Of a stretch of DNA of 64,000 bases, positions 7,002 to 23,446 are shown in pieces. The translations under genes and the position numbers were made by a program. This DNA is from Coleofasciculus sp. B1-GNL1-01 (GTDB lineage Bacteria; Cyanobacteriota; Cyanobacteriia; Cyanobacteriales; Coleofasciculaceae). The number at the start of each line of letters is the position of its first letter. Position 1 is the stretch's first letter. The stretch is taken from NCBI GenBank assembly GCA_040220235.1, contig JAVJTO010000096.1; one strand, given 5' to 3'. Below the pieces are notes generated by a model. It was given only the letters and a program-made list of their open reading frames with translations. It was not told the origin of the DNA and searched no databases.

Positions 7002-7907
7002 GTGCTTCGTTATCGTCGCCGTCTTTGGTTGTATCCCCTATTCCAAATCCCCTTAATCTGTTTGGGTATATGTTTAGTCGCGGCTGTATTGTTTGCCTTA
7101 CTCGGACTGGGTAGACCATCGGTAGCCGTCGCGATCGCGTTAGATTTAAGTAGCAGTACCTTCTCTGAACCCTCCCAGTTTAACCAACCGGGTACGGTGA
7201 TGTATCAGGAAGTTATCGCTGTTGAGTCTTATCTTGACCAAAATGCTCAACTGTTAAGAGTTCCTAATCAAATTCAGGTCTTTGGTTTTGCGGGAGTTGT
7301 TTTACCCCTGACCGATTCCTTTCAAACCGATAGTCAACAGGTAAGTGCTGAATTGAACCAGGCGTTGCAAAATCCTAACCTGATTCAGCGAATTGTACCG
7401 GGTACAACGGATTTGAATTTAGCGATTCAGGAAGGAACAGACGCCTTAAGTCCAATTCAGGATCATTGCCGGGAATTACTCTTAGTCACCGATGGGGAAG
7501 CTGACGTTGATGCTGAGGTGATTCAAGCCGCCGCCGCCCGTCGGGTGAAGATTAACGCTGTTGTCGTGGGTGGAGACGCGCCTGATTTACGCAACGCGGC
7601 TGCTACTACAGGTGGGATCTATCACTCTGGTCAAGTCACCAATTTAGAAACTGTTTTCACGAATCAATTCTTTAGGAATTTTAACAGTAATCGACGCTGG
7701 GTTATTTTTTGGCTGGGTGCGGCTTGGATTTCTCTGATGTGGTTACTCATCCTCCCCTTAGATCGCTGGATTTTCCAAGGATGGCTAAAACTGCCCATGA
7801 ATCTCGCGGGTCAATTAGCGTTAGGCAATGCCTTCTTCTGGACAGTCGCCACCCTTTTAATTGTTTGGCATTTAGCTAAAGGATTACCATTTATTTCACT
7901 ATGTTAA
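7002..7907 (+). CDS. Membrane-bound von Willebrand factor A domain protein
   Basis: MIDAS-type DLSSS, GTTDL...AI and LLLVTDGE motifs; one N-terminal and two C-terminal TM segments. Confidence 0.9.
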   Translation: MLRYRRRLWLYPLFQIPLICLGICLVAAVLFALLGLGRPSVAVAIALDLSSSTFSEPSQFNQPGTVMYQEVIAVESYLDQNAQLLRVPNQIQVFGFAGVVLPLTDSFQTDSQQVSAELNQALQNPNLIQRIVPGTTDLNLAIQEGTDALSPIQDHCRELLLVTDGEADVDAEVIQAAAARRVKINAVVVGGDAPDLRNAAATTGGIYHSGQVTNLETVFTNQFFRNFNSNRRWVIFWLGAAWISLMWLLILPLDRWIFQGWLKLPMNLAGQLALGNAFFWTVATLLIVWHLAKGLPFISLC

Positions 7908-7917
7908 TTGTTTCATC

Positions 7918-8021
7918 TATAGCGTTTTCATTTGAGTTGTGAACCCCACCCCTGCCCTCCCCTTGCTAAGGGGAGGGTTTGGGAGGGGTAATATTTTCAC
8001 GTTTCATTTGGAACTGCTATA
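7918..8021. repeat. TATAGC...GCTATA-ended MITE-like repeat with an internal GC-rich hairpin
   Basis: TATAGCGTTTTCATTTGA left end; TCATTTGGAACTGCTATA right end; internal CCCTCCCCTT...AAGGGGAGGG. Confidence 0.55.
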
Positions 8022-8260
8022 TTACTCAATCCAATCCTCTTTTCATTAGAGTCTCACACCTCTATCAATCTGTGAAATCAGTGCGACTAACCTGCCAAAG
8101 CCCCAGCTCAATGATTGCTGTAAATCTGTGGAATCAGTGTTTTTCTATGGTATACTTTTCATTATGGGAAAATATGCCTGCCTATAGACTCGACACATAA
8201 GGCTTCAGACAAAAAGCGACAACCCCTACCAATTCTCGTTCATTCACCAAAGAAACCACC

Positions 8261-11200
8261 ATGGCAACTCAAGTCGAAGAAAAAAGCATGGTTCCCACTA
8301 TCCTCATTGGGATTGGTGGCACCGGTGCCGAAATCGTCTCCCGAGTCCGACGCTTAGTTGCAGAAACCTACGGCAACTTAACCAACTTCCCCATCCTCAG
8401 CTTCCTGGTTATTGACACCGATAAAGACTATAAAATCAACAACCCCGACGCCGCTGGTTCCCCTTTAAAAGATAACGAAAAACACTGGGCAAGTGTCAGT
8501 GGTAAACAAGTCCGGGATATGGTGTCTAATATGGAAAACTATCCCTGGATTAATCGCTGGTTTCCTAGAGAATTAGAACGCAACATCACCTCATTAGAAG
8601 CCGGTGCCGGACAAATTCGTGCCTGTGGGCGATTTGCTTTATGGTGTAACTATCACGAGATTCGGGATAAATTTATCGCCGCCTGTCAACGGGTGAAAGG
8701 GCGGGAAAATTTTATGTTAGATCGCTATGGAATAAAAGTGAGTACCAATGCGATTAATGTCTTCATCACGGGGTCTTTATCCGGGGGAACGGGCAGTGGA
8801 ATGCTCATCGATATGGGCTATAGTATTCGCAAGTGGTTAGAGGGAGAAGGCAGTCCCCTCATTACCGCCATTGTCCCCATGCCGAATGCGTTTGTGGGAA
8901 TTAGTGTAGGCGATCGCGTTTTGGCAAATGGCTATGCGGCTTTAATGGAATTAAGTTATTTCTCCGACTACCGCACCGAATATGTTGCCCAATTTAGTAA
9001 TAGTTTAACCGATGAAATCCGCAGTCAACGCCCTCCCTTTGATTTCACCTATTTAGTCGGCACTAAAAACGGCGAAAGTGACTTTAAACTGGATCAATTG
9101 CGGGAAATGATTGCTCAGAACATTTTCCTAGATTTAACCTCAGATTTTGCCCCCCATAAACGCTCAATTCGCGACAATATTAAGGGGGCTTGGGCGCAGG
9201 CTGATCCGGGGGGACGAGGGTATCCCAAGAACTTTATGAGTTTTGGTTTGTCTACGATAGAAATTCCTATCGCTCAAATTAGAACATCTTTATCGAATCG
9301 TTTGGCAAAGGATTTAATTGGGTGGTGGTTGAATGAGTCGGTGCAATTACCGCCGCAATTGTTGGAATTGGTGCGAGGGGATATCCTGAAGCGGATGCGG
9401 TTAACTGAGGCGGAATTAATTGCTGATTTATCAGCGGCGGCAGATCGGTCTTATTTAGCCGTCATTTCTGAATGGGTCAATAGTATTCGTAATGAAATTG
9501 CCACCGATAACTGGCTGCAATGCACCCAGCAAGGGGTGAAGATGTTGGCGTCGGAAAAGGGGAAGATTCTGCGATTTGTCGATGGGTATCTCAAGCCAAA
9601 GGTTGATAATTATCGCACCGATCATTTTCGCGAAATTAGTCCCGATGAACGGTTACATGGGGACTTCCTGAAAAAGATGTACGATAACCGAGATCAATTG
9701 ATTAAACGGGGGCGGAAAGCCTTAGAGGATGAGTTTTATCAGATTCTAGAGAACCGCCGTCAAGGACCTAAATTTGCCGATGCTTTCTTAGCAACGGTGC
9801 GACAGATTTTTGAGGATGCCAGTGATAAGTTTCGCCGGGAACAGGATAAAATTTGGTCACCGAAGGAATCGGAACGCCAGCGACAATATGAAGCGGCGCT
9901 GCAAGATATTACTGAATTTAAGGATAAGTTTGGTGTGACCAAACAAGCCAAAATGGAGGAGTATTGTGAATCAGCCCTGATCGGGTTAGAAGGCTGTTTA
10001 ACGGCAACGATTCAGCGGAAGGCACGGGGTCTCGGATTGGAGGTAATTAGTCGGTTACAAGAACATTTAACGGTATTAGAGCGGCGATTCAACCGATGGA
10101 AGCAAAAGCTGATTCAGGCACGGGATTTGTATCAGGAAAAAGCGAATCGGCAGGCGGAGAGTGCGGATGCTTTAGTGATTAATGGGATTAAGTTGTATGA
10201 CCGACAGGAACTGAATGGATTATATCAGGATTTAATTGAGCAGTTGGCAGGGGCGTCGGAGGGGAGTCAAACGGCTTATGAGATAGGCATGAATGGGGTA
10301 TGTAGTACGGTATCAGAAGAAGTGCTGAATTTAGCCAGTCCCTTGTGGAAAGAAACCCGGATGGCAGATGAGGTAATGCGGTTATTTGATATTACCGAAA
10401 TCCCGGATGTGCAAGATGAGGATTTGCGGCAGATTATTTTGGATCGCAGTCAGGCGGTGGTGGCGAAAGCCCCGCAGAGTAGTAAATTGCAGCAAGACTT
10501 AGCCGCGTGCGATCGCCTGTTCAAGGTATTTAATGATGATGCGGAGATTGTGAATAATTTACGCATTGCTTATAACAAGTCTAAACCGTTAATTCTGCTT
10601 GCGCGATCGGTGTTAACCGGGAAAGATGCTGGATTTACCCCCGCAACGAATACGAATGTAGCGCTATTGGGTGGGCGGAATACCAGTGATCCAGCCGCAC
10701 AGAAAATTATCCCTAAATTAGAAGAATTTCTGGGAAATGAGGAATCGATGAAACCCTTGGGAGATTTAGAACGACATCGCCTGGTATTTGTCCAAGAAAC
10801 AGGCGGATTTTCCCTACGTTGTATTGATGGGATGAAAGAATTACGCCAATCCTATCAAGATTGGAAAGGGGAAAGTATTGTGGCGAAACGGGCGCAGTTA
10901 CGGGGAGAAAGTCGCGATTTACCGATTCCCGTACATCTGCAAAAAGAACCGCCGTTTTGGGATGTGTTTCCTGAAGATCCGGCTATTTTTAGTTTAGTGG
11001 TTCAAGCACGGGCGCTGGGGGTATTGCGTCAAGAGGAAAATCGCACGACAAAGGAAACGGTGATTCGCTATACTCGGCAAACGGCAATTGGTGCAGAATC
11101 GGTAGATATTGCTTCTAGTTGGGAAGAAGCGTCTCAGGTGTTGGAGGTGTTAGCTTGTCGCCCAGATAGGGAAGAGATTCAGCGTCAAGTGATGCAGAAG

Positions 11201-11560
11201 CTGAATGCAGCAGAAACGCCCAGACAAAAGCAAGCCATTTTTGGGCAATTGACACAGTATTTGGAACAACGGGCGTTGGAGTTGGATAAGCAGGGGGGAA
11301 AAGATAGTCCTGATTATAAGCGAGAGGCGCGGATTTTGTTGGATGTGATTGAGCGGTATAAATTGAAGGTAGAGAGTCAGTCTGTGTCGCCAGGGGTTGT
11401 GCAGCAGCCTCGGAGTGATGGGGGGAATGCGCCAACTCAGATTGAGGCGAAGAGTGTAACGCCGCAAGCCCATGTTTTCTGTACGAATTGTGGGACGAAG
11501 AATCCTAGTAATTCTAAGTTCTGTTTTAAGTGTGGCACTCAATTGGTTAAATTGAACTGA
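8261..11560 (+). CDS. Tubulin/FtsZ-like GTPase (Tubulin_2 / FtsZl1 type) with long helical/coiled-coil region and C-terminal zinc ribbon
   Basis: IGIGGTG, IDTD, GAGQIRACGR, GSLSGGTGSG (tubulin signature) and ANGYAALMEL motifs; C-terminal CTNCG...FCFKCG. Confidence 0.92.
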   Translation: MATQVEEKSMVPTILIGIGGTGAEIVSRVRRLVAETYGNLTNFPILSFLVIDTDKDYKINNPDAAGSPLKDNEKHWASVSGKQVRDMVSNMENYPWINRWFPRELERNITSLEAGAGQIRACGRFALWCNYHEIRDKFIAACQRVKGRENFMLDRYGIKVSTNAINVFITGSLSGGTGSGMLIDMGYSIRKWLEGEGSPLITAIVPMPNAFVGISVGDRVLANGYAALMELSYFSDYRTEYVAQFSNSLTDEIRSQRPPFDFTYLVGTKNGESDFKLDQLREMIAQNIFLDLTSDFAPHKRSIRDNIKGAWAQADPGGRGYPKNFMSFGLSTIEIPIAQIRTSLSNRLAKDLIGWWLNESVQLPPQLLELVRGDILKRMRLTEAELIADLSAAADRSYLAVISEWVNSIRNEIATDNWLQCTQQGVKMLASEKGKILRFVDGYLKPKVDNYRTDHFREISPDERLHGDFLKKMYDNRDQLIKRGRKALEDEFYQILENRRQGPKFADAFLATVRQIFEDASDKFRREQDKIWSPKESERQRQYEAALQDITEFKDKFGVTKQAKMEEYCESALIGLEGCLTATIQRKARGLGLEVISRLQEHLTVLERRFNRWKQKLIQARDLYQEKANRQAESADALVINGIKLYDRQELNGLYQDLIEQLAGASEGSQTAYEIGMNGVCSTVSEEVLNLASPLWKETRMADEVMRLFDITEIPDVQDEDLRQIILDRSQAVVAKAPQSSKLQQDLAACDRLFKVFNDDAEIVNNLRIAYNKSKPLILLARSVLTGKDAGFTPATNTNVALLGGRNTSDPAAQKIIPKLEEFLGNEESMKPLGDLERHRLVFVQETGGFSLRCIDGMKELRQSYQDWKGESIVAKRAQLRGESRDLPIPVHLQKEPPFWDVFPEDPAIFSLVVQARALGVLRQEENRTTKETVIRYTRQTAIGAESVDIASSWEEASQVLEVLACRPDREEIQRQVMQKLNAAETPRQKQAIFGQLTQYLEQRALELDKQGGKDSPDYKREARILLDVIERYKLKVESQSVSPGVVQQPRSDGGNAPTQIEAKSVTPQAHVFCTNCGTKNPSNSKFCFKCGTQLVKLN

Positions 11561-11630
11561 AGGGTGTGATAACTTTAACTGATATGTTGTATTCGTAATT
11601 CTACGAACTACCGAAATACCTATACCGGTT

Positions 11631-11663
11631 ACTGACTTATAACTGAATTGTAACTGAATTATG
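11631..11663 (+). promoter_or_regulatory. Three tandem 11-bp direct repeats (candidate operator)
   Basis: ACTGACTTATA-ACTGAATTGTA-ACTGAATTATG upstream of the COP23-trypsin gene. The identical first 11-mer occurs on the minus strand at 17581-17591 and 19280-19290. Confidence 0.6.
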
Positions 11664-11786
11664 TATATAGCCTAAGAAATAAGGATATGATCTGATTAGC
11701 TTGCCAATAATGGTTCAGCAAAATCTAATTGCGATTTTATTTTTTGGGTCAATCAAGTATTTGGCAGTATTTTGAGCGGAGTAACT

Positions 11787-13028
11787 ATGAAAATTTGGTC
11801 GTTATTATTAGGTACTGTCGCCGTGACTCTGGGTGTTACTACATCGATGAATTTGTCTAGTCATGCCCAAGAGCGAGCGCCTACAACGTTCTACTGTGGT
11901 AGTCATAATGGTCAGCCAGCAACAATCGCTCGGCATGCGACACGGGGAGAAGTAGTCTTGATTATCTGGAGTAGCAGTTATTTTTCTAATTATGGCTATC
12001 CTCCTCAACGGCGCTGTGAAGAAGTTTCCCACAGGTTTCAACAAAATCATCAAAGTGGAGTATTAAACTATATTTCTTCTGGTAGATATAAGGGTTTTCC
12101 TGCACTATGCGCTTCTCGTAGTATCTCTGATAGGGTTGTTCAATGTCCTGCTGAAAGAGTTTTAGTAACCCTAAGACCCGGAGAAGATCCTCAGGAGGTG
12201 ATTTCGCAATTGGCTAATATAAATACTGGCAGTTCAACTTCTCCATTGATCTTTTATGAAGATCACATTCAACAATCAGGAAACCACTATATTGCAATTG
12301 ATGTTGGTGTGTGGATCAGATTCGCCCAATATTCAAGAAATTCTTCAGAATACATAAACTCTATTTCATGTAACTATTCTTTATCTAGACCCTGCCAAGA
12401 TGAATCTAATAGACCTGATGTGCAAAAACTAGCTACAAGCTTCACAGTTATCATTGTCAGTTATAAAAGTGTGCTGGAAAATGAAAATAGAACAGTTATT
12501 GTTGGTTCTGGAGCAATCATTGCTCAACAAGGAGACACTTATTATGTGCTGACCAGTGAACAAGTGGTCAACAATATAGCTGACTATGAAATTTTTACTC
12601 CTGATAAAAAAAACTATCCTGTCATATCTATTGAAAGACTATCTAACTCTGATTTAGCTATTTTAGAGTTTAAGAGTGAAAGAATCTATCAAGTTGCGGC
12701 AATTGGTGATACTAGTCGCTTGACTGGAGGAAATGCTGTGTATATTAGTGGTGACTTATATTTAGACGAAACACAAATATATCAGCTAGCTGAGGGACAA
12801 CTTACTGATACGGCAATTCCTGCTGATACGGCAATTTCTAGCCATAGAGCGCGTCTAGATTATACTAACGTTACCACAAGACCGATGAGAGGTGGACCAG
12901 TATTGGATGATAAAGGTGATCTAGTTGGAATTCACTTGAATGCTGGTTCTGGTATTCCAATAGACGTTTTTTTACAAGCAGCACCATCAGAGTTATTGAA
13001 CATTATGTACAAGAATGATTATCCTTGA
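11787..13028 (+). CDS. Secreted COP23-domain / trypsin-like fusion, probably catalytically inactive
   Basis: Signal peptide ending SHAQ; COP23-like FYCG...PATIAR...IIWSS.YF...GYPPQRRCEEVSHRFQ. The trypsin-like domain has VLTSEQVV (His lost), SDLAIL (Asp kept) and PMRGGPVLD (Ser lost). Confidence 0.8.
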   Translation: MKIWSLLLGTVAVTLGVTTSMNLSSHAQERAPTTFYCGSHNGQPATIARHATRGEVVLIIWSSSYFSNYGYPPQRRCEEVSHRFQQNHQSGVLNYISSGRYKGFPALCASRSISDRVVQCPAERVLVTLRPGEDPQEVISQLANINTGSSTSPLIFYEDHIQQSGNHYIAIDVGVWIRFAQYSRNSSEYINSISCNYSLSRPCQDESNRPDVQKLATSFTVIIVSYKSVLENENRTVIVGSGAIIAQQGDTYYVLTSEQVVNNIADYEIFTPDKKNYPVISIERLSNSDLAILEFKSERIYQVAAIGDTSRLTGGNAVYISGDLYLDETQIYQLAEGQLTDTAIPADTAISSHRARLDYTNVTTRPMRGGPVLDDKGDLVGIHLNAGSGIPIDVFLQAAPSELLNIMYKNDYP

Positions 13029-13072
13029 TAATTGACAAAGCTTAAGCCTTTAATATATTGAGAGATAAAAAA

Positions 13073-16000
13073 CTATCTATCCAAGCAGATATTGAATTCT
13101 TTTCTAATTTGAGGATGAGTAACTAGGTAATTTTCTAACCAGTCGCATCCTTGATTTAGCAATGCATCTAAGTCGTCCAGATCTGGAGTTTTTTCTCCTA
13201 ATAGTTGTTTAAACGACGGCTTAGATAACTGCCATAGTCTGACTACACCATCTTCTCCGGCGGTAGCGAGTCTCTGTCCATCCGGACTAAAACTTGAACT
13301 ATACACCTTGCCTTCATGACCAAATAATCCAAGAGGAAATCGGCTAGATTGAGTAGTTTCCCAGAGCCATACTGTACCATCCTCACCAGCAGTGGTAAGA
13401 ATAGGGCGAGAAGGGTCAAAGCTAAGGTGATTTATTCCAGATTGACGGCTATCAAAGTCTTCTACCTTCTGTTCTGCTACATTCCAAATTCGGACTTGGC
13501 TATTCTTACCTGCCATAGCAATCTGCTTTCCGTCAGCGCTAAAAATGATACTTGTAAGGATACTACTGCTACCCCTTGCTTCCACTTTCTGTTGTCCTTC
13601 TAGTGTCCAGAGTTGAAAAATGCCATCCTCTCCACCCGTGGCAATCAACTCTCCATCCGGACTAAAATTTACAGTTGTTACCGCATTTTGAGAAACTTGC
13701 CATTGAGCTTTAAGTTGCCCTATCAAGTTCCAAATCTTAACTGTACCATCCTTGCCACTCGTCGCAAAAAGTTGTCCATTTGGGCTAACACTAAAACTGG
13801 TAACGCCACCGGAATTAACTTGCCATTGAGTTTGTTGCTGTCCAGCTAAGTTCCAAATCCGCACAGTACCATCCTCACCCGCACTAGCTAGATGTTTTGC
13901 AGCAGTTATAAATTGCACACTACTCACACCACCAGAATGCGCTTGCCATTGAGTTTGTTGCTGTCCAGCTAAGTTCCAAATCCGCACAGTACCATCCTCA
14001 CCAGCACTAGCTAGATACTCTCCATCAGGACTAAAACTTACACTCATTACCCTACCTTGATGACCCTTCAATTGATTCTGCTCGTGAATACTATCCAAAA
14101 TGACCTGTAAGTGCAACGAAGTTCTAGCTACTAGCTTGCTAGTGCTAGAATCAGGAGTACCATGTTCGGCAAATTTCTTGACCTTTTGTCCAGCCTGCAT
14201 TATCAATAGCAGGGCTTCTATCTCTTTGAACTCTCTTTTGTCAACAGCTTTCTGTATTAATTCCTCAACCAAAAGCTTAGAGCGAGCATTGAATGCTTCT
14301 GTTTCAGCAACCTCGGCTCTCTGAGTTGCTAGTTGAACTTGCTGCTCGGCTCTGTCCAGTTCAATCGCTTTTTGCTGTGCCTGCTGAGTTACATTTTTTA
14401 AGGTTTTCCTTGCCGTGGTTAATTGTTGATTGGCTTCTTGAGCTTTCCTTTCAGCTTCTTGGCGTTCTTCCTTAGTCAATTGAACTTTTTGATTAACTTC
14501 TTTAAGTTGAGTTTCAACCGCTGTTAAGTGTTGGCTAGACTTTTGAGCCTTCCGTTCAGCTTCTTGGCGTTTATCTTCAGCTAATTTAACACTTTTATAA
14601 ACTACTTTTAATTGAGTTTTGGCATCCTTTAATTGGTTATTTGCTCTTTCAGTTTCCTGTTCTGCTTGTTCCCATTTATCCTCAGCGACTTGCGCTTTTT
14701 GACTAACATCTTTTAGTTTTGTTGTCGCACCCGCTAGTTGGTGAGTTTTCCTCCCCGCATATAAACTAGCAGTTACGGCAGCAATTAAGGATATTAACAG
14801 CACAATTGAACCGATACGAATGCTTCTATTCGCTCTTCGTTGAGCCGCATATAATACTCGATTAGCTTTTTCTACACTCTCTAATTCCTGTCTAACTCTT
14901 TCTGCTTCTAAAGCCTTCTGACTTTCTTGCCGATCTAATTCTTGACTAGCATCTAAGAACCGATAATCTTGAGGCATTAAATTTTTGTCGGCTGCCCAAG
15001 CTTTGGCATCTTGTAAAGCCTTGCCACGCAATAACCGTGACTCATCCTGACCATGAGAATCTAGCCAATATTTCAGCGCCTCTGCATAAGGACGCAACTC
15101 CGACAACTCTTTAGCACTCCAAGCCCAATCAAAGACTAAACCATAGAGGCGGTTGTAAACTCTCAAACTGCCTTCTAGCTTCACCACCAACCCAGACAAA
15201 CGCAGTTCCATTTGTTCGAGGCTGTCATCAGCAATAATTTCTCCCTGCTGCAAAATTTCCTGGTAAAGCCCCAACAATCGACCCTTACGCCGTTCATTCC
15301 ACAGCAGGCGATCGCGAATTGTCCGCAAATGCTCTGGATTGTCCCGCGATTCCCAGTTCTTGATCAAGTGCGATCGCACTAATCTCTCTACTGCCTCTGC
15401 TTCCTTGCCAACCGCAATAAATGACCCCGAAGTAGCAACGATTTGGCAAAGCTTTTGAGTCAGAAATGGCTGACCCCCCGTCCAATCTAACACCACAGCT
15501 AACACCGCCTGGGGATCATGACTAATCTCAGCTAATCCCTTGGCTAACGGTTGTGCTTCCTGCAATTGAAAGCCATAGAGTTCAACGGCTCGTCCAATAT
15601 TAAACGGGGTGCGCTTTTTATCTTCAATAAAATCAGAAGGCGTCGCCACTCCCAGTAATGCAAAAGTCAAGCGTTTATAAGCAGGCTTATCTACCCGTTG
15701 GTTGTAGAATGCTCGGATCAGGGCAAAAAAATCATCGGTCAAGAAATTTAAACTGAGAACATGATCAATTTCATCGATGAAAATTACAATATTTTCCGCT
15801 ATCTCGACCAGCAGCACTTCCTCAATAAACTCTCGAAAACGCTGCACAGGTGATAGACAATTACGCTCTTGCCACCAAGTTCTGCGATTAACTTTTCCCG
15901 ATAAATCGAACTCGCTGACTAAATCGTAGAACAATCCCATATACCAACTGGCTAGGGTATTCTTGTCACTACCAATCAGTGTCAAATCGAGAGCAGCACA

Positions 16001-16210
16001 GCGAATACCCTCAGCTTCCAGCCGTTGCATCGTTTGCAATCGCAAGCTGGACTTCCCCATCTGTCGCGAGTTCAGCACATAGCAAAAGTTTCCAGCCTTC
16101 AGCCCTTGATACAGGTTTTGATCTGCCTGTCGCGTGACATAACTTGGTGCGTCCGCTTCCAAGCTTCCGCCAACTTGATATCGGTAGGTTGAACCTTGCA
16201 CTGTACTCAT
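13073..16210 (-). CDS. AAA_35-type NTPase - TM helix - coiled coil - WD40 beta-propeller protein
   Basis: YQVGGSL...YVTRQAD, Walker A-like NSRQMGKS, Walker [21 protein letters not shown]; hydrophobic [16 protein letters not shown]; about 7 WD40 repeats ([18 protein letters not shown]). Confidence 0.9.
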
Positions 16211-16219
16211 TTTCAACGC

Positions 16220-17503
16220 TTAATTCCCTAGGCGATCGCGCAAATAATTACTATACAAATGATAGCGAGGTTTGACCTCATTTCCCTCTAACTGCACCAG
16301 ACCCAAACTTTGTAATTGAAAAGCTAGCATGGATTCTAATTGCACCGGATGTGTTGACTCGACTACTATTTTCATTGCCATTGCCAGTTCTGGATGCTCC
16401 TGCAAATTGCCCAAATGTCCCCGCAAATGATTAGCGTAAATTCCCGCTTCCGTACAAGCCTTTTGCAGCAGTTCCTCCAGGGTGATTTCGGAGCGAGTCA
16501 GGTGATAGATTGCCCTCTGTACGAGATAAGGATGTCCTCCCACCAACGACATTAGCTGATCCACTTGTGAACCCTGCCAATCCAATCCTTGTCGCTGTGC
16601 CAAATCCTGTACTTGTTCCCGGTTAAACTCCGGTAATTCTATGGACTCACCAACATTAAACGGCGACTGATGAATATTTAGCTCAATATACACTTCCGTG
16701 GAATGGGCAACAACCAACCGCAGTTTTTTCCAAAGCTTACTTCTCTTTCCTTTCTCATACCAAGCTCGCAGCATCGCCAAAAAGTTCCCAGCAATTGCAG
16801 AATAAGGAAAAATACGATCCACGTCATCTAACGCTAAGACCAAGGGATGCTCTAATTGACTGAGCAAATATTCCTCAAAATAAATTGTACAGCTCTGGCT
16901 GCTACCTAACTCGTCTACCCAATAATCAGTCAATTGATCTCGTAGTCTCAACTCGCGCCCCACGACACCACAGAACCAGCGCAGGAATTTATCCAGACTG
17001 CTTAAGACCGACCCATCGGCTAGCAGTAAACTTAAATTCACAGTTCGATACTTTTGTTTAGTTGCTTGAGCCAGAATCCTATCAATCAGCCAGGTTTTGC
17101 CCATTCGCTTCGGTGCTTTGATCCGCAGCAGGGAACCCGGTTGCAAGATTGTCTCATTGCAGCGAGATTCGATAGGAGGTCGCTCCATATACTCAGAGAC
17201 GGCTGTTCCTGTTTCCTCCCCAGAACAATCAACCGTAGCCAATTCCAACGCCTCTGCTGAAAATGCGCGATCGCTGCGTTCGTCTTCAAGATCAGCGATT
17301 TCCTTCAACTCTAATCCCAATCTTTCGCAAATTTCATAAAACGTCGCATAATCAACACGTCTACCATTGAGGAAACTACTCACTGTGGACAAAGCAAGCT
17401 GTAACTCCTCGGCTAGGTCTCTCTGGCGGAAAAAACCATTATGCTTAACTGCTCGTTTGACCCGTTCGATATACTGGGGGGAAATTCTTAGCGATCGCGA
17501 CAT
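16220..17503 (-). CDS. HTH (XRE-like) - AAA_35-type NTPase
   Basis: N-terminal QRDLAEELQLALSTVSSFLNG HTH; KAPKRMGKT, LALDDVD, HQSPFNVG and VGGHPYLV motifs. Start ATG17503; the ORF track starts at 17530. Confidence 0.9.
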   Translation of the reverse strand: MSRSLRISPQYIERVKRAVKHNGFFRQRDLAEELQLALSTVSSFLNGRRVDYATFYEICERLGLELKEIADLEDERSDRAFSAEALELATVDCSGEETGTAVSEYMERPPIESRCNETILQPGSLLRIKAPKRMGKTWLIDRILAQATKQKYRTVNLSLLLADGSVLSSLDKFLRWFCGVVGRELRLRDQLTDYWVDELGSSQSCTIYFEEYLLSQLEHPLVLALDDVDRIFPYSAIAGNFLAMLRAWYEKGKRSKLWKKLRLVVAHSTEVYIELNIHQSPFNVGESIELPEFNREQVQDLAQRQGLDWQGSQVDQLMSLVGGHPYLVQRAIYHLTRSEITLEELLQKACTEAGIYANHLRGHLGNLQEHPELAMAMKIVVESTHPVQLESMLAFQLQSLGLVQLEGNEVKPRYHLYSNYLRDRLGN

Positions 17504-17619
17504 GACTAATCCTTGAATGAAGCTAATCACATCATAATCTGCTTGATCATGACCTCAAGGGAACTGAGTCAGAAGTCGGTTATAAGTCAGTCATGAGTGT
17601 ATAGCTTATTGGTGGATTA
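17405..17619. repeat. Copy 1 of an approximately 215-bp direct repeat (5' end and upstream region of the HTH-AAA_35 gene)
   Basis: Aligns base for base, with scattered substitutions, to 19104-19318. Confidence 0.9.
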
Positions 17620-17686
17620 GAATTGTAGGGGCGCTAATGGTTTCTAGTTTAGTTACCAATGAAACCCAAGGCAATAAACAGTAGTC

Positions 17687-17878
17687 TTACTTGCGTTCCT
17701 TCTGTTGCCCAATAACTTTAATCAGTAGGGCGATGGAGCGAATTAGGACAGCGATCGCGAAGATGGTTTCAGGTACACTGCCTACTGGAACCTGTAGCGG
17801 TAGATTTGGCTCGACATGAGTTGGTACAGCAATGAGTGGTTCACCAGTGTGGATAATTTGATGTGCTTCACCTTGCAT
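17687..17878 (-). CDS. Small protein with a C-terminal hydrophobic helix
   Basis: 63 aa; AGGA RBS upstream of the ATG; TIFAIAVLIRSIALLIKVI followed by a basic tail; directly upstream of the AAA_35 pair. Confidence 0.55.
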   Translation of the reverse strand: MQGEAHQIIHTGEPLIAVPTHVEPNLPLQVPVGSVPETIFAIAVLIRSIALLIKVIGQQKERK

Positions 17879-18143
17879 GGTGTTTTTCCTAACTCTACAG
17901 TCTCATCCTCTAAAACCGCTTATTGAGGTCGAAACTGAGCAATGCTTGACTTGATAACTGAGTTCGTGACTGACTTACACCCTCAACCCTAATCGCTGCG
18001 TTAAACTGAAGTTCCCCTAGCAGTAGACACATCGATTAGGACTTTCAGCGCCATTGATTGTAGAGACGCGCCATGGCTTTCAGCAATCAGGTTTGGCATT
18101 TCGTTTCCCAGAGTGACAATAGAGCGATAAGTCCCGTAGTCCT

Positions 18144-18368
18144 TTATGCCGCATAGCGGATAATTTCTACCTCAGCTCCATTATTCACAGCCATCTCCGC
18201 CCGTTGAAGTACCTGCTCGGTAATCAAATCACTCAGATAATACTCACCACAATTATCACAAACCTCTGCTGGTACCCGTTTGATAATCACAATACTTTCG
18301 TCTCGTTCGAGAGTCACAGTCACTAAACCAGCTTGTGTTTCGCCATGCTGACAGATTACACACCTCAT
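18144..18368 (-). CDS. YgiT-type zinc-finger protein (MqsA-like antitoxin)
   Basis: MRCVIC...VPAEVCDNCGEYY motif. Confidence 0.9.
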   Translation of the reverse strand: MRCVICQHGETQAGLVTVTLERDESIVIIKRVPAEVCDNCGEYYLSDLITEQVLQRAEMAVNNGAEVEIIRYAA

Positions 18369-18372
18369 GCTT

Positions 18373-18652
18373 TTATCTCCGAGTTCTAAAATTATTTGTC
18401 CACAAATTGGGATCGGGGCGATAAGCCGTCACCACATATCCTGTATCCATAGATTCATTATGAAAATACAACATGAATGGGTTGACCTTCGACAAAATCT
18501 AATAACAGATAACTAGGAAACGGCTTATCATATAGATTTTATTCGATCACTTCCCCATAAGCAACAACAGTTTGTACATCAGCTTTACTAATTCGGCGTA
18601 GAAACATCTGTTGGATAGCATGACGTGAAAAAACTAGATTTTGACAATCCAT
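18373..18652 (-). pseudogene. DUF4258-family toxin pseudogene
   Basis: Manual translation: MDCQNLVFSRHAIQQMFLRRISKADV..VVAYGEVIE*..DKPFPSYLLL...PIHVVF, then a frameshift into VVTAYRPDPNLWTNNFRTRR*. Confidence 0.85.
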
Positions 18653-18673
18653 AAGTTATGGCTTACAAAATAA

Positions 18674-19045
18674 TCATTTCTTGTTGGCTTCCCGTTGCCT
18701 TCTGTTTTCTATCAGTTTGACTCGAACGGCTTCGTAGCCAGCACGGGGAGGAGCAGCCGCAATCCGAGCCAAGCGATCGCGGTTGCGTTCTTCCCAATAC
18801 TGTCGAATTTCTTCTGCCATTTGCAAAACGTCTTGATACTCTGCCTCTACCTCTACTTGATGGGCTTCAATATAGGCAAGAACTCCATTCATCTGCTCAT
18901 CAGTCAAATTGAAGACATCGCGAATGTACTTGTGTGGATAGTCGGCTTTGAGATAATCGATCACGTCATAGAGAGTGATCCGGGTACCCGCGATCGTTAA
19001 TCCCCGTTCAGTACGGATAATATATTCGTTACCAGCGTTCGTCAT
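18674..19045 (-). CDS. DUF433-family antitoxin-like protein
   Basis: IIRTERGLTIAGTRITLYDV...LTDEQ...LAYI pattern. Confidence 0.85.
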   Translation of the reverse strand: MTNAGNEYIIRTERGLTIAGTRITLYDVIDYLKADYPHKYIRDVFNLTDEQMNGVLAYIEAHQVEVEAEYQDVLQMAEEIRQYWEERNRDRLARIAAAPPRAGYEAVRVKLIENRRQREANKK

Positions 19046-19103
19046 TCCTATCTTCTACGGTAAGGAAATCCCTGATGTCGTTTTCAGTCTCCATCATAGC
19101 CCT

Positions 19104-19318
19104 CTCCTCGGCTAAGTCTCTCTGGCTCCAAAAACTATTACGCTTAACCACTCGCTTGACCCGTTCGATATACTGGGGGGAAATTATTCGCGATCGCGAC
19201 ATGACTAATCCGTGAATGAAACTAATCACATCATAATCTGCTTAATCATGACTTCAAGGGGATTGAGTCAGAAGTTGCTTATAAGTCAGTCATGAGTGTA
19301 TAGCTTGTTGGTGGGTTA
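19104..19318 (-). pseudogene. Duplicated 5' fragment and upstream region of the HTH-AAA_35 gene (repeat copy 2)
   Basis: MSRSRIISPQYIERVKRVVKRNSFWSQRDLAEE matches the N-terminus of 16220..17503, then diverges abruptly. Confidence 0.85.
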
Positions 19319-19439
19319 CGGCGAGATAGTTATTAAACAGTCATTCGTGCTGATTAAATTCCCGCCTAACCCACCCTACGTGGCACACCCAATTTTATGA
19401 ATTAGGATTAAACTGTAGGGGCGCACCGACGTGCGCCCT
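19309..19439. repeat. Two REP-like palindromes
   Basis: GGTGGGTTACGGCG...CGCCTAACCCACCCTAC and GTAGGGGCGCAC...GTGCGCCC. Confidence 0.7.
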
Positions 19440-19626
19440 TTTTTCACACCAATGTACGCCCCATTCAACCGTAACTTTCCTCTCACAATAAGCAACACCC
19501 TCATAAACTTCGAGCCTAAAATTAAGAGTCATTCCTAGAATCTTGATAGGCTTTGACCTTTTCGTATAAACTAGCAACAAACCTAGCAATTGAGTAGCCT
19601 TTCCCAATTATTGGTGTCATAATTTA

Positions 19627-20076
19627 TCAATTATCATCCTCCTCAAGCAACGCTGAATCTAACAATCGCTGCCAATCCTCATCGGTTGGCAATAAGCCTT
19701 GATATTTAATGCGCTGCATAATCAAAATATTATGACCCCAAGGAATTTCTGCAACAAGCTGTTTCAGAAATTCAGGTGCTTCAGCATAGGCTTCATAAAA
19801 CTGCTTGATTAACCACAAATTGCGCGGTGAAAATCCAGTTATTTGAGGAAATTCAGCCTTGAGGTCAGCCAATAGCCGTTCTACGACTGCCTTGCCCCAT
19901 CCTAACGCCTCCTGCCGCTCTACAATCAACTGCCCCAAAGACCAATACAAGCGAATCAGCGATCGATTAACTGCCCGCGCCGCCTCAATCCGACTTTGAA
20001 CAACCTGAATTTTAATGTCCCGGAGGAAATCCTGATAGGCGCGATCAAAAGAAGGTTTAATGGTACTCATGTTCAA
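19627..20076 (-). pseudogene. DUF1016/YhcG-family protein with an internal deletion of the PD-(D/E)XK nuclease domain
   Basis: AARAVN..LI.LYW..G, WGKAVVE, GFSPRNL and IPWGHNI N-domain motifs, joined directly to a short LLPTDEDWQ tail. Confidence 0.75.
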
Positions 20077-20239
20077 AACCCTGGATTACTGCGATGACTC
20101 GCTAATCTTACAGCCTATCCCTAGAATAGCCGCGATATCCCTACGGAATTAATGGAGGTGTTGAAAGCGCGATCGCACGTTTTTGACATCTAAATTACCC
20201 TTCGTCGGGACACGCTCCCCTGATACCCTGTTATTTCCT

Positions 20240-20779
20240 TTAGTTTTGCCATGTTGCATCTAGGGTAAAGTTACAAGAATCTTGGAGAATACAAACATCA
20301 TTTACTTGTATTAAATTACCTGTACAGAATATCGGAATGCGTTCTTGATACGCTTTAATCGCCAAAATATAATCACGTCCGCTTAATTCGGTCTGAATTT
20401 TACAGATTTGATTGTTGACGGCTCCAAATAGTGTAATTTGTCCGATTAATTCAGTCTTGTTTGCAGGCTGAATTTGCATCACTACTCCCTGAACCTTGAC
20501 AGCATTGACTGTTGCATTTAATAAATGGCTGGGTTCTTGACCTGTAATCCTTGCGTACAGGACAACGGGATCGAGATCGGCTTCATTCTCCCATTGGATC
20601 GTGCCTAAATCATGATTGACTCGGACTTTAGCAAAATAGTCTGGATTTTTTAAGGGAGTAAATATACCTGTAAATTCTATGATTTGACTAATATCAACTA
20701 TGCCCTCAACGCCATCATCGAATCGTAGATGGAGTTGATATCCTGCTAAAGGTTGAACATCGACAATATCTTTTAGCAT
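20240..20779 (-). CDS. DUF2442-family antitoxin fused to an additional C-terminal domain
   Basis: MLKDIVDVQPL..YQLHLRFDDG..G.VD...GTIQWENEADLDP..LY, plus about 90 extra residues. Confidence 0.8.
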   Translation of the reverse strand: MLKDIVDVQPLAGYQLHLRFDDGVEGIVDISQIIEFTGIFTPLKNPDYFAKVRVNHDLGTIQWENEADLDPVVLYARITGQEPSHLLNATVNAVKVQGVVMQIQPANKTELIGQITLFGAVNNQICKIQTELSGRDYILAIKAYQERIPIFCTGNLIQVNDVCILQDSCNFTLDATWQN

Positions 20780-20782
20780 GGC

Positions 20783-20833
20783 TTACTCTAAAGGAATGAT
20801 TTTGTTTAACGGTTGATTCGTTTGGGCGATCGC
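20783..20833 (-). pseudogene. 3' remnant of a DUF4160-family toxin, beginning at a HIP1 site
   Basis: AIAQTNQPLNKIIPLE* ends 3 bp before the DUF2442 ATG and resembles the C-terminus of DUF4160 proteins, the usual DUF2442 partner. Confidence 0.6.
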
Positions 20834-20995
20834 ACTTTCTTATACATCTAAATTGCCGTTGGTAGGGGCACGATACCATCGTGCCCTGCTATCAGACTGG
20901 TTAAGGTGCGTTACGCTTCGCTAACACACCCTACAGATAGAGCCTTTGCGTAATCCAAATCTTGAGCGGGTAACGCAACCCGTTATCATGATGTT

Positions 20996-23446
20996 ATGGG
21001 AAGAAGCAACACCTCTGGTCACACCACCGTTGTCGGGACTCACCCCTACCTTGAACTCAACAATCAAGGTCAAATCCAGCGCTTTTATCTCAACCAAGAC
21101 ACCCATACACTGGGACGCGATCGCACTTTCTCTAACCTCCCCATCCCTCCCAGTTGGGGCGTTATCTCTAACCGCCACGCCATCTTACGCAAAGAGGGTG
21201 AAGACTATCGTATTTTCGATGGCGATGGTCAACGTCCCAGTACCAATGGTATTTTTATCAACAAAACCCGAATCAACACCAGCCAAGGCTATCTCCTCCA
21301 AAGCGGTGTACAACTGGAAATTGGTCAAGATCCCCACAACTACATCCTCCTCACCTATACCAATCCCAATCGCAGCCAACTCACCGTCCAACCCAGTAAA
21401 CAGCGCCTATCCCTTCAAGGATTACGGGAGTGGCCCGTGGAATTGGGACGGGAACCGACTCCTGGACGCTACGCCGCCATCCAACTTGACGCGCCCACCG
21501 TCTCCCGCCTACACGCCGTTATCACTCCATTCCCCCAAGGTGGCTATGTCTTAGAAGACCGTAGCACCAATGGTACTTTCCTGAACGAAAAACTGATCAA
21601 TACTAGCGTTCCCCTCCAGGATGGCGATACCATCCGCATCGGACCCTTTAGCCTACTACTACGCCAAGACACCCTGGAATTAGTGGATCGAGGCAATTTT
21701 ATTCGCCTCGACGCCCATCGCTTAGTGCGTCAGGTTAAAGATAAACAGGGGCAAACCAAAACCATCCTCAGTCACATCTCTCTCCCCATTGAACCGGGAC
21801 AATTTGTCGCCTTGGTGGGCGGAAGTGGTACGGGGAAATCTACCCTATTAAAAACCCTCTTAGGCATTGAACCCACCCAGGAAGGTGCCGTTTTTCTCAA
21901 TGGCGACAACCTGCGACAGAATTTTAACCTCTATCGGTCTCAAATTGGCTATGTCCCCCAAGATGATATCGTCCATCCGGATTTAACTGTTGCTGAAGTC
22001 CTCACCTACTCCTGTCGGTTACGATTACCCCCGGATACCCATGTCAACGCGATCGTCGATCGCACTCTTGACCAAGTTAAGCTAGAGTTTGTCCGCAACA
22101 GTTTTGTCCGGGATTTGAGTGGGGGACAACGCAAACGGGTGAGTATCGCCGTGGAACTCCTGGCTGATCCCAAACTCTTTTTCCTGGATGAACCCACATC
22201 TGGACTTGACCCCGGATTGGACAAAGAGATGATGCAACTCTTACGGGAACTCGCCCATCAGGGGCGCACCATCCTCCTCGTCACCCATGCAACCGCCAAT
22301 ATTGAAGTCTGCGATCGCATCGCGTTTCTGGGTCGCGGTGGACATCTGTGCTACTTTGGTCCCCCGCAAGAGGCGATGGACTTCTTTGAAATGCCCTCTG
22401 GTGACTTAAAATACTTTGCCGATATTTACATCAAACTCGACCAAGGCAAAACTCAATCAGAAAATGAGCAAACTGTCAAGCATTGGACTGAGAAATTTTT
22501 GCATCATTCCGCCGCCTATCAAAGCTACATTCAAGCCTCCCTAAGTCCAGGAAAAGTCACGCCATCCCAACCCCCACCCAGTTCAGGAAGCGGGAGTTCT
22601 CCCCTAAACCAACTCTGGCTGCTAAGTAAACGCTACCTAAAACTAATTCTTCGCGATCGCCGCAGTCTCGCCCTCTCCTTACTCACCGCCCCAATTGGTA
22701 TTGGCTTAATTGTCCTCACGTTAGCGGGTAAAACCCCTTTAGCTGAACTTGACACCCTAGAGATAACCCAAGCGCCTCTCGCCTTACGAGTCCTATTTAT
22801 TTTTACCTGTGCAGCCATTTTAGTTGGACTCTTAAGTTCAGTCCAAGAAATTGTCAAAGAATCCAGTATTTATGCTAGAGAACGATTAGTTAATTTAGGC
22901 ATTTTTCCCTATCTGGGGTCAAAATTCCTGATCCGTTCAGGTTTAGCGATTCTGCAAACTCTTTTGATGGTTCTGGTTATTTTAGTGGGGTTTCAATCGC
23001 CTAATCCGGAAATAATTCCCTGGTCAATTGGTTTATCTTTAACTACATTTTTAACGTTAATGGCTACCTTGAGTTTAGGACTCTTGGTGTCCGCCTTAGT
23101 CACCAATGAAACCGAGGCAAATAATAGCCTATCCTTACTCTTTCTACCCCAAATTATCTTTTCTGGCGTTCTCTTTGAACTGACTGGTTTTGCCCGTAAA
23201 CTCTCCTGGTTAACCATCAGTCGTTGGTCAGTGGGCGCTTATGGTGCTTTAGTGGATGTCAATGCCATGGTACCGGAACAAACACCTCTACCTGGAATGG
23301 AACCGCTTCCCCTTCCCTTTGAACCGACGCCCGTTTATGATCCAACCTGGGACAACCTGAGACTTAACTGGGGTATCCTTTGTGTCCATACCGTTGTTTA
23401 TCTGGCGATCGCGCTTTGGTTACACAAGCGTAAGGATATTTTGTAA
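20996..23446 (+). CDS. FHA-FHA-ABC transporter (fused ATPase/ABC-2 permease, Rv1747-like architecture)
   Basis: Two FHA domains (LGR...SNRHA...STNG; LGR...SRLHA...STNGT); GGSGTGKS, LSGGQ and FLDEPTSGLD motifs; multi-TM permease. Confidence 0.95.
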   Translation: MGRSNTSGHTTVVGTHPYLELNNQGQIQRFYLNQDTHTLGRDRTFSNLPIPPSWGVISNRHAILRKEGEDYRIFDGDGQRPSTNGIFINKTRINTSQGYLLQSGVQLEIGQDPHNYILLTYTNPNRSQLTVQPSKQRLSLQGLREWPVELGREPTPGRYAAIQLDAPTVSRLHAVITPFPQGGYVLEDRSTNGTFLNEKLINTSVPLQDGDTIRIGPFSLLLRQDTLELVDRGNFIRLDAHRLVRQVKDKQGQTKTILSHISLPIEPGQFVALVGGSGTGKSTLLKTLLGIEPTQEGAVFLNGDNLRQNFNLYRSQIGYVPQDDIVHPDLTVAEVLTYSCRLRLPPDTHVNAIVDRTLDQVKLEFVRNSFVRDLSGGQRKRVSIAVELLADPKLFFLDEPTSGLDPGLDKEMMQLLRELAHQGRTILLVTHATANIEVCDRIAFLGRGGHLCYFGPPQEAMDFFEMPSGDLKYFADIYIKLDQGKTQSENEQTVKHWTEKFLHHSAAYQSYIQASLSPGKVTPSQPPPSSGSGSSPLNQLWLLSKRYLKLILRDRRSLALSLLTAPIGIGLIVLTLAGKTPLAELDTLEITQAPLALRVLFIFTCAAILVGLLSSVQEIVKESSIYARERLVNLGIFPYLGSKFLIRSGLAILQTLLMVLVILVGFQSPNPEIIPWSIGLSLTTFLTLMATLSLGLLVSALVTNETEANNSLSLLFLPQIIFSGVLFELTGFARKLSWLTISRWSVGAYGALVDVNAMVPEQTPLPGMEPLPLPFEPTPVYDPTWDNLRLNWGILCVHTVVYLAIALWLHKRKDIL

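Follow-up and report, generated by a model that had tools for sequence, protein, structure and literature searches.

Which protein reads the 11-bp direct repeats that stand before two convergent transcription units in the cyanobacterium Coleofasciculus sp. B1-GNL1-01? The units lie in a 64,000-nucleotide stretch of contig JAVJTO010000096.1 (assembly GCA_040220235.1), called the window here, from a genome of 8.66 Mb (G000). A + strand gene for a protein with COP23 and trypsin-like domains converges with a − strand operon, in which a gene for an XRE/Cro-type helix-turn-helix (HTH) fused to an AAA_35 STAND NTPase is followed by one for a second AAA_35 protein with a WD40 propeller. We conclude that the repeat arrays are probably operators of the HTH-AAA_35 protein (16220–17503, −; 427 aa counted from the ATG at 17503), likely activating ones, with its membrane-anchored AAA_35 partner as predicted receptor. 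Sequence comparison indicates that the array is a real regulatory element, a variant of the operator type bound by XssQ of Synechocystis sp. PCC 6803.

Arrays and promoter geometry

Four repeat stretches had been proposed in the original prediction, and reading the sequence confirmed all of them at their positions. Array 1 (11628–11660, +), upstream of the COP23-trypsin gene, consists of three 11-bp units with the core CTGA[C/A]TT. Exactly 25 bp behind it is a predicted −10 box, TATGAT (11686–11691, +); no sigma-70 −35/−10 pair was called at this promoter. Array 2 (17562–17594, −), upstream of the HTH-AAA_35 gene, also has three 11-bp units, and the predicted −10 box of the operon, again TATGAT (17531–17536, −), is again exactly 25 bp away. 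Both boxes had been overlooked before. The units at 17957–17979, originally described as looser, are present and belong to a three-unit array with a 12-bp period, array 3 (17942–17976, +; weak fourth unit at 17930–17941). This is the best-scoring array of the whole genome, and is followed by TAAACT at 18002–18007.

The 11-mer predicted at 19280–19290 is there as well. It is not an independent site, since it lies inside a 214-bp duplicate of the HTH-AAA_35 promoter and first codons (19104–19317, −), which aligns with 17405–17618 at 193/214 identical positions and is also found in a sister genome, G003. The independent sites are therefore arrays 1, 2 and 3. The duplicate holds a degraded array (19261–19293, its second and third units degraded) with a −10 box at 19235–19230, and yields a truncated HTH open reading frame (ORF; 19029–19202) overlapping a DUF433 gene (18674–19045). 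Across 19029–19317 the duplicated promoter and 5′ end are fused onto this gene, and may drive it and an MqsA-like gene (18144–18368).

Could such repeats arise by chance? A genome-wide count of the 11-mer, proposed as a check of confinement to the locus, gave seven copies against 3.7 expected under an order-5 Markov model, which is not above chance; four of the seven lie outside the window, none of them in arrays. The single 11-mer is thereby ruled out as a specific signal. With up to two mismatches the window holds 25 matches vs. 15.4 ± 3.75, and 2 of 100 shuffles reach 25. For arrays we used a matrix learned from relatives' upstream regions only, with the window excluded. Among genome-wide pair hits at the 11-bp period, the COP23 and HTH-AAA_35 promoters rank first and second, followed by the promoters of three HTH paralogues. 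Among triples at 11 or 12 bp, the three window arrays take ranks 1–3 and two XRE-HTH-AAA_35 paralogue promoters ranks 4–5. The array is not confined to the locus; promoters of genes with this XRE-HTH have it across the family, three more of them in this genome.

Only five triples reach at least 29 bits genome-wide, all intergenic, and none of 40 column-permuted matrices gives five such triples, the highest count being one. The flanks of the strong arrays are unrelated, apart from the one duplicate. An origin of the arrays by chance, or from a mobile or short tandem repeat, would agree with the unenriched single 11-mer, but given these counts and the fixed distance to the −10 box we find it scarcely credible. 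Such repeats (REP, STRR) are marked by many dispersed copies that share their flanks, or by 7-bp head-to-tail units, whereas here there are five arrays with a period of 11–12 bp.

The genome also has orphan arrays. One (G000:C44:135959) stands in front of a NACHT-gene-like fragment, opposite a response-regulator gene; another (G000:C9:5268) has four to five units and no clear gene behind it; and two copies (G000:C15:27139 and 27691) lie between one receptor-like and one GDSL-like gene.

Distribution of the array and of the XRE-HTH

The XRE-HTH of the regulator was matched in 46 of 61 related genomes, and it is present in 166 of the 251 genomes of the order searched, often in many copies. Motif discovery upstream of orthologous modules, suggested with the original prediction, was run on 23 upstream regions of relatives, without the window and without six loci that were short or near-duplicates. 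It found 11 to be the best period (score 413, vs. 220–296 for periods 8–10 and 12–14), with the consensus RTRMCTGA[C/G]TT. At a threshold of at least 16 bits, 5 of 14 HTH paralogues in the own genome (the relic included) have an array, vs. 8 of 4414 background ORFs; the counts for AAA_35 genes lacking the HTH were 0/17 and 0/19.

An independent set was then assembled from Nostoc, Scytonema, Calothrix, Moorena and Symploca records, among others, after dropping 49 entries as training-like or redundant. The array stands upstream of 37 of 83 genes with the HTH and of none of 24 AAA_35 genes without it, although kin within the set are not independent, so that Fisher values overstate this difference. 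Control periods of 9, 10, 12 and 13 on the 83 HTH genes gave 0, 3, 9 and 0, and the reverse strand gave 1. The zeros for AAA_35 genes lacking the HTH, here and in the own genome, rule out that the array goes with AAA_35 in general. The promoter geometry recurs too: 33 of 58 arrays have a TAnnnT −10-like hexamer 24–26 or 35–37 bp downstream of their best pair, vs. 7, 7 and 8 at control offsets.

A strict tandem pattern matched 32 times in 22 of the 61 genomes (some of which supplied training sites), vs. five times for a reversed control. The 30 loci derived from this pattern are mostly HTH promoters, with one COP23 promoter; of the remainder, six belong to loci of other NTPase genes or of small genes, and five are unrelated or lie in coding sequence. 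Around HTH genes, 807 kb hold eight extra arrays, vs. none in 461 kb of loci without an HTH gene.

Several observations count against the arrays as operators of the regulator. At the threshold, 46 of the 83 independent HTH genes have no array. Below the top tail of the genome-wide ranking, period 11 is not enriched: pair hits at 18 bits number 13 at period 11, 13 at period 9 and 10 at period 12. The same box precedes HTHs that differ in several recognition-helix residues (L013, L140, L264, L273, L274), and arrays also stand before an EAD4 gene (L091), before a NACHT gene that lacks this HTH (L101), and at three loci (L090, L095, L106) with no HTH gene found up to 1.5 kb away. A box that stays constant while helix-3 residues change, and arrays before genes lacking this HTH, would fit another trans-acting cyanobacterial factor, of which the HTH-NTPase and COP23 genes would be mere targets. 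Against such a factor, no wider regulon is seen, as the top genome-wide matches are HTH paralogues and the window, and the 15 genomes without an HTH match (E ≤ 1e-8) yield a single tandem-pattern match, within an ORF. Furthermore, different subfamilies have different boxes, and the homologous HTH protein XssQ binds a like one. We regard this alternative as rather unlikely, and the regulator's own HTH as the better candidate.

Six loci (L091, L101, L090, L095, L106 and L109) have one array-bearing promoter type, placed before XRE-TPR, EAD4 or NACHT genes or before no detected regulator, and facing small genes and a LuxR-type regulator. At L141:10762 a 22-bit array precedes the gene of a 437-aa protein with a weak match to RTX calcium-binding repeats, 8.5 kb from the regulator; it is a candidate target.

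Predicted regulator, receptor and targets

The HTH of the regulator is of the Cro/C1 type, its nearest solved relatives being HipB. The protein model (mean pLDDT 76) retrieved archaeal STAND-like ATPases (2qen, 2fna) and ORC/CDC6 in Foldseek, followed by Avs3, MalT (8bob) and NLRs, all with low TM-scores of 0.21–0.27. The second AAA_35 protein (13073–16216, −) combines, by Pfam and hydropathy, a STAND NTPase, a membrane helix, a coiled region and a WD40 propeller; the hydrophobic helix lies near residue 468, between NTPase and propeller, and the protein is a predicted membrane receptor. Among partner AAA_35 proteins, 29 of 44 have a hydrophobic segment at residues 380–560. Their C-termini are swappable: 15 that were scanned have periplasmic-binding (six), COP23 (two), TPR (two), WD40, GUN4 or HATPase (one each) domains, or none (two). 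Because of this hydrophobic segment after the NTPase and the varied ligand-binding outer folds, we give about even chances to the regulator being triggered by its co-encoded membrane partner. One partner (L049:10991–13141) ends in a histidine-kinase ATPase domain, joining the module to a part of a classical two-component system.

The COP23-trypsin protein (11787–13028, +; 413 aa; PF14218, PF13365) has a hydrophobic N-terminus and is likely secreted. The His and Ser positions of the trypsin catalytic motifs are substituted both in the window allele and in that of G003, so that the protein is likely a pseudo-protease, inactive as a protease.

G003 is informative in that its regulator is nearly identical while its COP23-trypsin allele is only 52% identical, and the COP23 promoter has diverged. 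In this promoter array 1 is kept in register at 22 of 24 core positions, vs. 53 of 146 flanking positions, a footprint based on two genomes, and TATAGT follows at the same 25-bp distance. The pattern points to array 1 being kept under selection. The G003 allele contains two COP23 stretches. Comparison of the window with L043 shows that G003 also lacks the stretch 17956–18640; array 3 is interrupted behind its first unit, at the junction, and the MqsA-like gene is missing.

The same chromosomal site could be compared in five of nine genomes of the genus. The array is present in the two with the module and missing in the three without it, of which two have a kinase gene in its place and one has lost both promoter and module. 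Before this variable cassette, 7002–11560 holds a vWA gene and the gene of a 1099-aa Tubulin_2 protein with a C-terminal zinc ribbon; in genomes G001 and G007 a Ser/Thr kinase-like gene follows the vWA and Tubulin_2 genes instead of the cassette.

Might only array 2 work, with array 1 a neutral relic of a duplicated HTH-gene promoter that the COP23 gene has captured? Both promoters share the array-to-−10 spacing and the bases directly after the −10 box, promoter duplicates and orphan arrays exist (the 19104–19317 copy may be a like case for the DUF433 gene), and other COP23 loci lack the array: none of 28 other COP23 or trypsin loci reaches 16 bits, the highest being 14.8, which rules out the array as a general COP23 feature. 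Against a relic, G003 has selectively preserved array 1 while promoter and gene diverged around it. COP23 domains also recur inside such modules or directly behind them: they are fused to the receptor in L034 and L114, and in L035 and L118 they and trypsin are encoded downstream of the receptor gene, in its direction. These fusions and same-strand followers indicate that COP23 is either inside the operon or, at this locus, has been given its own array. A relic is thus very improbable, and a regulon linking the COP23 gene with the HTH-AAA_35 operon is the reading we retain; the COP23 protein probably acts as an outer accessory to the predicted membrane AAA_35 receptor.

No terminator was called between the convergent COP23-trypsin and AAA_35-WD40 genes. 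Parts of the stretch occur in seven RNA runs, in every case as contigs. The contigs of four runs cover the HTH and receptor genes piecemeal and include hardly any of the COP23 gene; they come without strand, start or level, and nothing is drawn from them.

Upstream of the operon and on its strand is a gene for a 63-aa Pro-rich peptide with a C-terminal hydrophobic helix by hydropathy (17687–17878, −). Viewed from this gene, array 3 is oriented and spaced like the tandem XssQ site at xssE. Four genes homologous to the peptide gene are divergent from members of a second XRE-NTPase subfamily, across another 11-bp array, and other regulators face small membrane-protein genes, including CyanoTRADDas_TM. 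Array 3 fits this pattern of small divergent genes; its + strand partner gene seems to have been lost. In the own genome a second-subfamily XRE gene faces a small Pro-rich membrane-helix peptide gene across the best array of that subfamily (G000:C70:108355–108761).

For this second subfamily, a de novo search in 28 non-redundant promoters again gave 11 as best period (424, vs. 292–377). Cross-scoring of the two subfamily matrices returned 0/83 and 0/28. The second matrix correlates with the reverse complement of the first at 0.43 by column, which argues that the two boxes are variants of one family rather than unrelated. Across the family, box and recognition helix tend to change together: R-D-T-x-[S/N] helices go with GTCGG/CCGACA arrays (6/7, vs. 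1/170), [K/R]-N-T helices with CCCAA[C/G]T (6/6), and the R-N-S helix of XssQ with AACTT. There are counter-cases, as L015 (L-N-T) keeps GACTT and R-D-T-x-R members keep GACTT-like boxes. On a 68-column tree, 31 and 27 of 500 shuffles are as low for the two groups, so one origin for either is possible and the covariation cannot be separated from kinship. For these reasons a helix-to-box code is only suggestive.

Regulation in the light of XssQ and other known systems

XssQ (Slr5058) is the only studied member of this HTH family that our literature search turned up. Its box, AAGTTnnAC, is given in passages of PMC8205485 and bioRxiv 10.64898/2025.12.18.694786, and a table in PMC12267927 points to the same protein. 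According to the passages of PMC8205485, XssQ, a STAND protein with an XRE-HTH and a NACHT domain, causes a mobility shift of a probe containing tandem AAGTTnnAC, and transcription of its targets depends on it. The XssQ HTH scores 58.8 bits (E 2e-20) on the family profile (alignment A3), and by tblastn is 42% identical to that of the regulator over residues 3–72. Read in reverse, the array unit is AAGTCAGTCAT, related to the XssQ box but not identical with it. Seven AAGTTnnAC sites of XssQ score 3.1–11.1 bits on the array matrix when reverse complemented, values that are inflated by the choice of sites through a pattern already sharing AA.TT with the matrix. The homologous HTH and the like box bound by XssQ are the strongest support for the regulator's HTH as the binder, and the arrays are probably bound by it. 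Close paralogues with like arrays could cross-bind. The original prediction of operators that link the COP23 and HTH-AAA_35 units into one regulon is therefore backed, at the level of sequence, by the comparative array tests and by XssQ.

The sign of regulation is less certain. XRE/Cro-type HTHs are often autorepressors, and the HipB relationship would suit a repressor. The same protein might thus cover the −35 side of its own operon and of the COP23 promoter until the receptor signal releases it. In several NACHT- or NB-ARC-fused members the last unit covers the −35 region, only 5–18 bp upstream of the −10 box. In XssQ-activated promoters, moreover, the box points the opposite way from that in arrays 1 and 2, and XssQ therefore does not fix the sign here. 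Against repression, arrays 1 and 2 end 25 bp before the −10 box and leave the −35 position free, the COP23 promoter has no called sigma-70 −35, and the only tested homologue activates (passages of PMC8205485). As XssQ activates and the arrays end next to the −35 position, activation is moderately favoured by analogy, and repression unlikely.

The arrays with their 11–12 bp period and 25-bp distance, their restriction to HTH-gene and COP23 promoters, the conservation in G003 and the XssQ homology are directly seen; on them an activating mechanism can be proposed. The outer domain of the membrane AAA_35 protein would sense a ligand and nucleate an oligomer of the regulator, whose HTHs would occupy the helically phased units as an AAA_35-built oligomer. 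Once bound, this oligomer would recruit polymerase, giving positive feedback on its own operon, and would induce the COP23-trypsin and small peptide genes. More tentatively, this could represent a kinase-free two-component system of two STAND ATPases in filamentous cyanobacteria, in which an XRE-AAA_35 activator is nucleated on its 11-bp arrays by a membrane AAA_35 receptor whose outer domain is interchangeable, a simple helix-to-box code insulates the subfamilies, and COP23 proteins, a family without known function, serve as outer accessories and feedback output.

No description of the array box, of AAA_35 regulons or of the receptor pairing was found in the literature searched, which did not cover subscription papers and supplements; supplementary file 3 of PMC8205485 (xssQ homologues and consensus sites), outside that search, may bear on novelty. 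With a predicted site, a promoter geometry and subfamily variants at hand, the family can be tested by electrophoretic mobility shift assays and reporters, and these features would let regulons be read from genomes. The locus also connects COP23 proteins with a signalling module and suggests that NLR-like proteins are employed here as transmembrane switches of transcription, not for cell death.

How does the module compare with what is known? Like XssQ, the regulator has a homologous N-terminal XRE HTH on a STAND NTPase, and XssQ too has single or tandem boxes near promoters (12 bp apart at xssE), with a box close to the reverse complement of the array unit. The likeness extends to the regulator's own promoter, since the site common to the divergent xssP and xssQ genes (L338:19809–19972) lies 26 bp before TATCAT in the xssQ direction, and its distance to this −10-like box is that of the arrays, which suggests autoregulation of XssQ. 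Passages of PMC8205485 describe no site in xssQ's own promoter. Unlike XssQ, which has a NACHT domain, the regulator here has AAA_35 and no NACHT match, and the closest XssQ match in the own genome is another gene (C2:1766–4105). In place of the XssS kinase and XssR response regulator, neither of which is found among the 12 window proteins of 7002–23443, there is a membrane-anchored AAA_35 partner. The arrays here are triple with a GACTT core, vs. AACTT for XssQ, and the predicted targets are the own operon, the COP23-trypsin gene and the peptide gene rather than polysaccharide genes.

Cyanobacterial two-gene STAND pairs also occur in the Npun2340/2341 family, reportedly defined by Leipe et al. 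in 2004. The resemblance is one of fold only, and we do not equate AAA_35 with Npun2340/2341. That family of MNS-clade STAND NTPases is named in passing in PMC8195603, the passages of which give no DNA site, regulon or transmembrane-receptor role.

Phased arrays themselves have precedents. None of the 12 proteins scanned in the window has an OmpR-type domain. Oligomerising activators such as MalT, the AfsR/SARP STAND activators and PhoB/OmpR, the last with 11-bp boxes, bind direct repeats phased by the helical turn near the −35 region. The arrays described here resemble these sites in having direct repeats one helical turn apart next to the −35 region. They differ in the DNA-binding domain, which is LuxR- or OmpR-type in those activators and XRE/Cro-type here, and in the predicted sensor, which here is a separate STAND protein.

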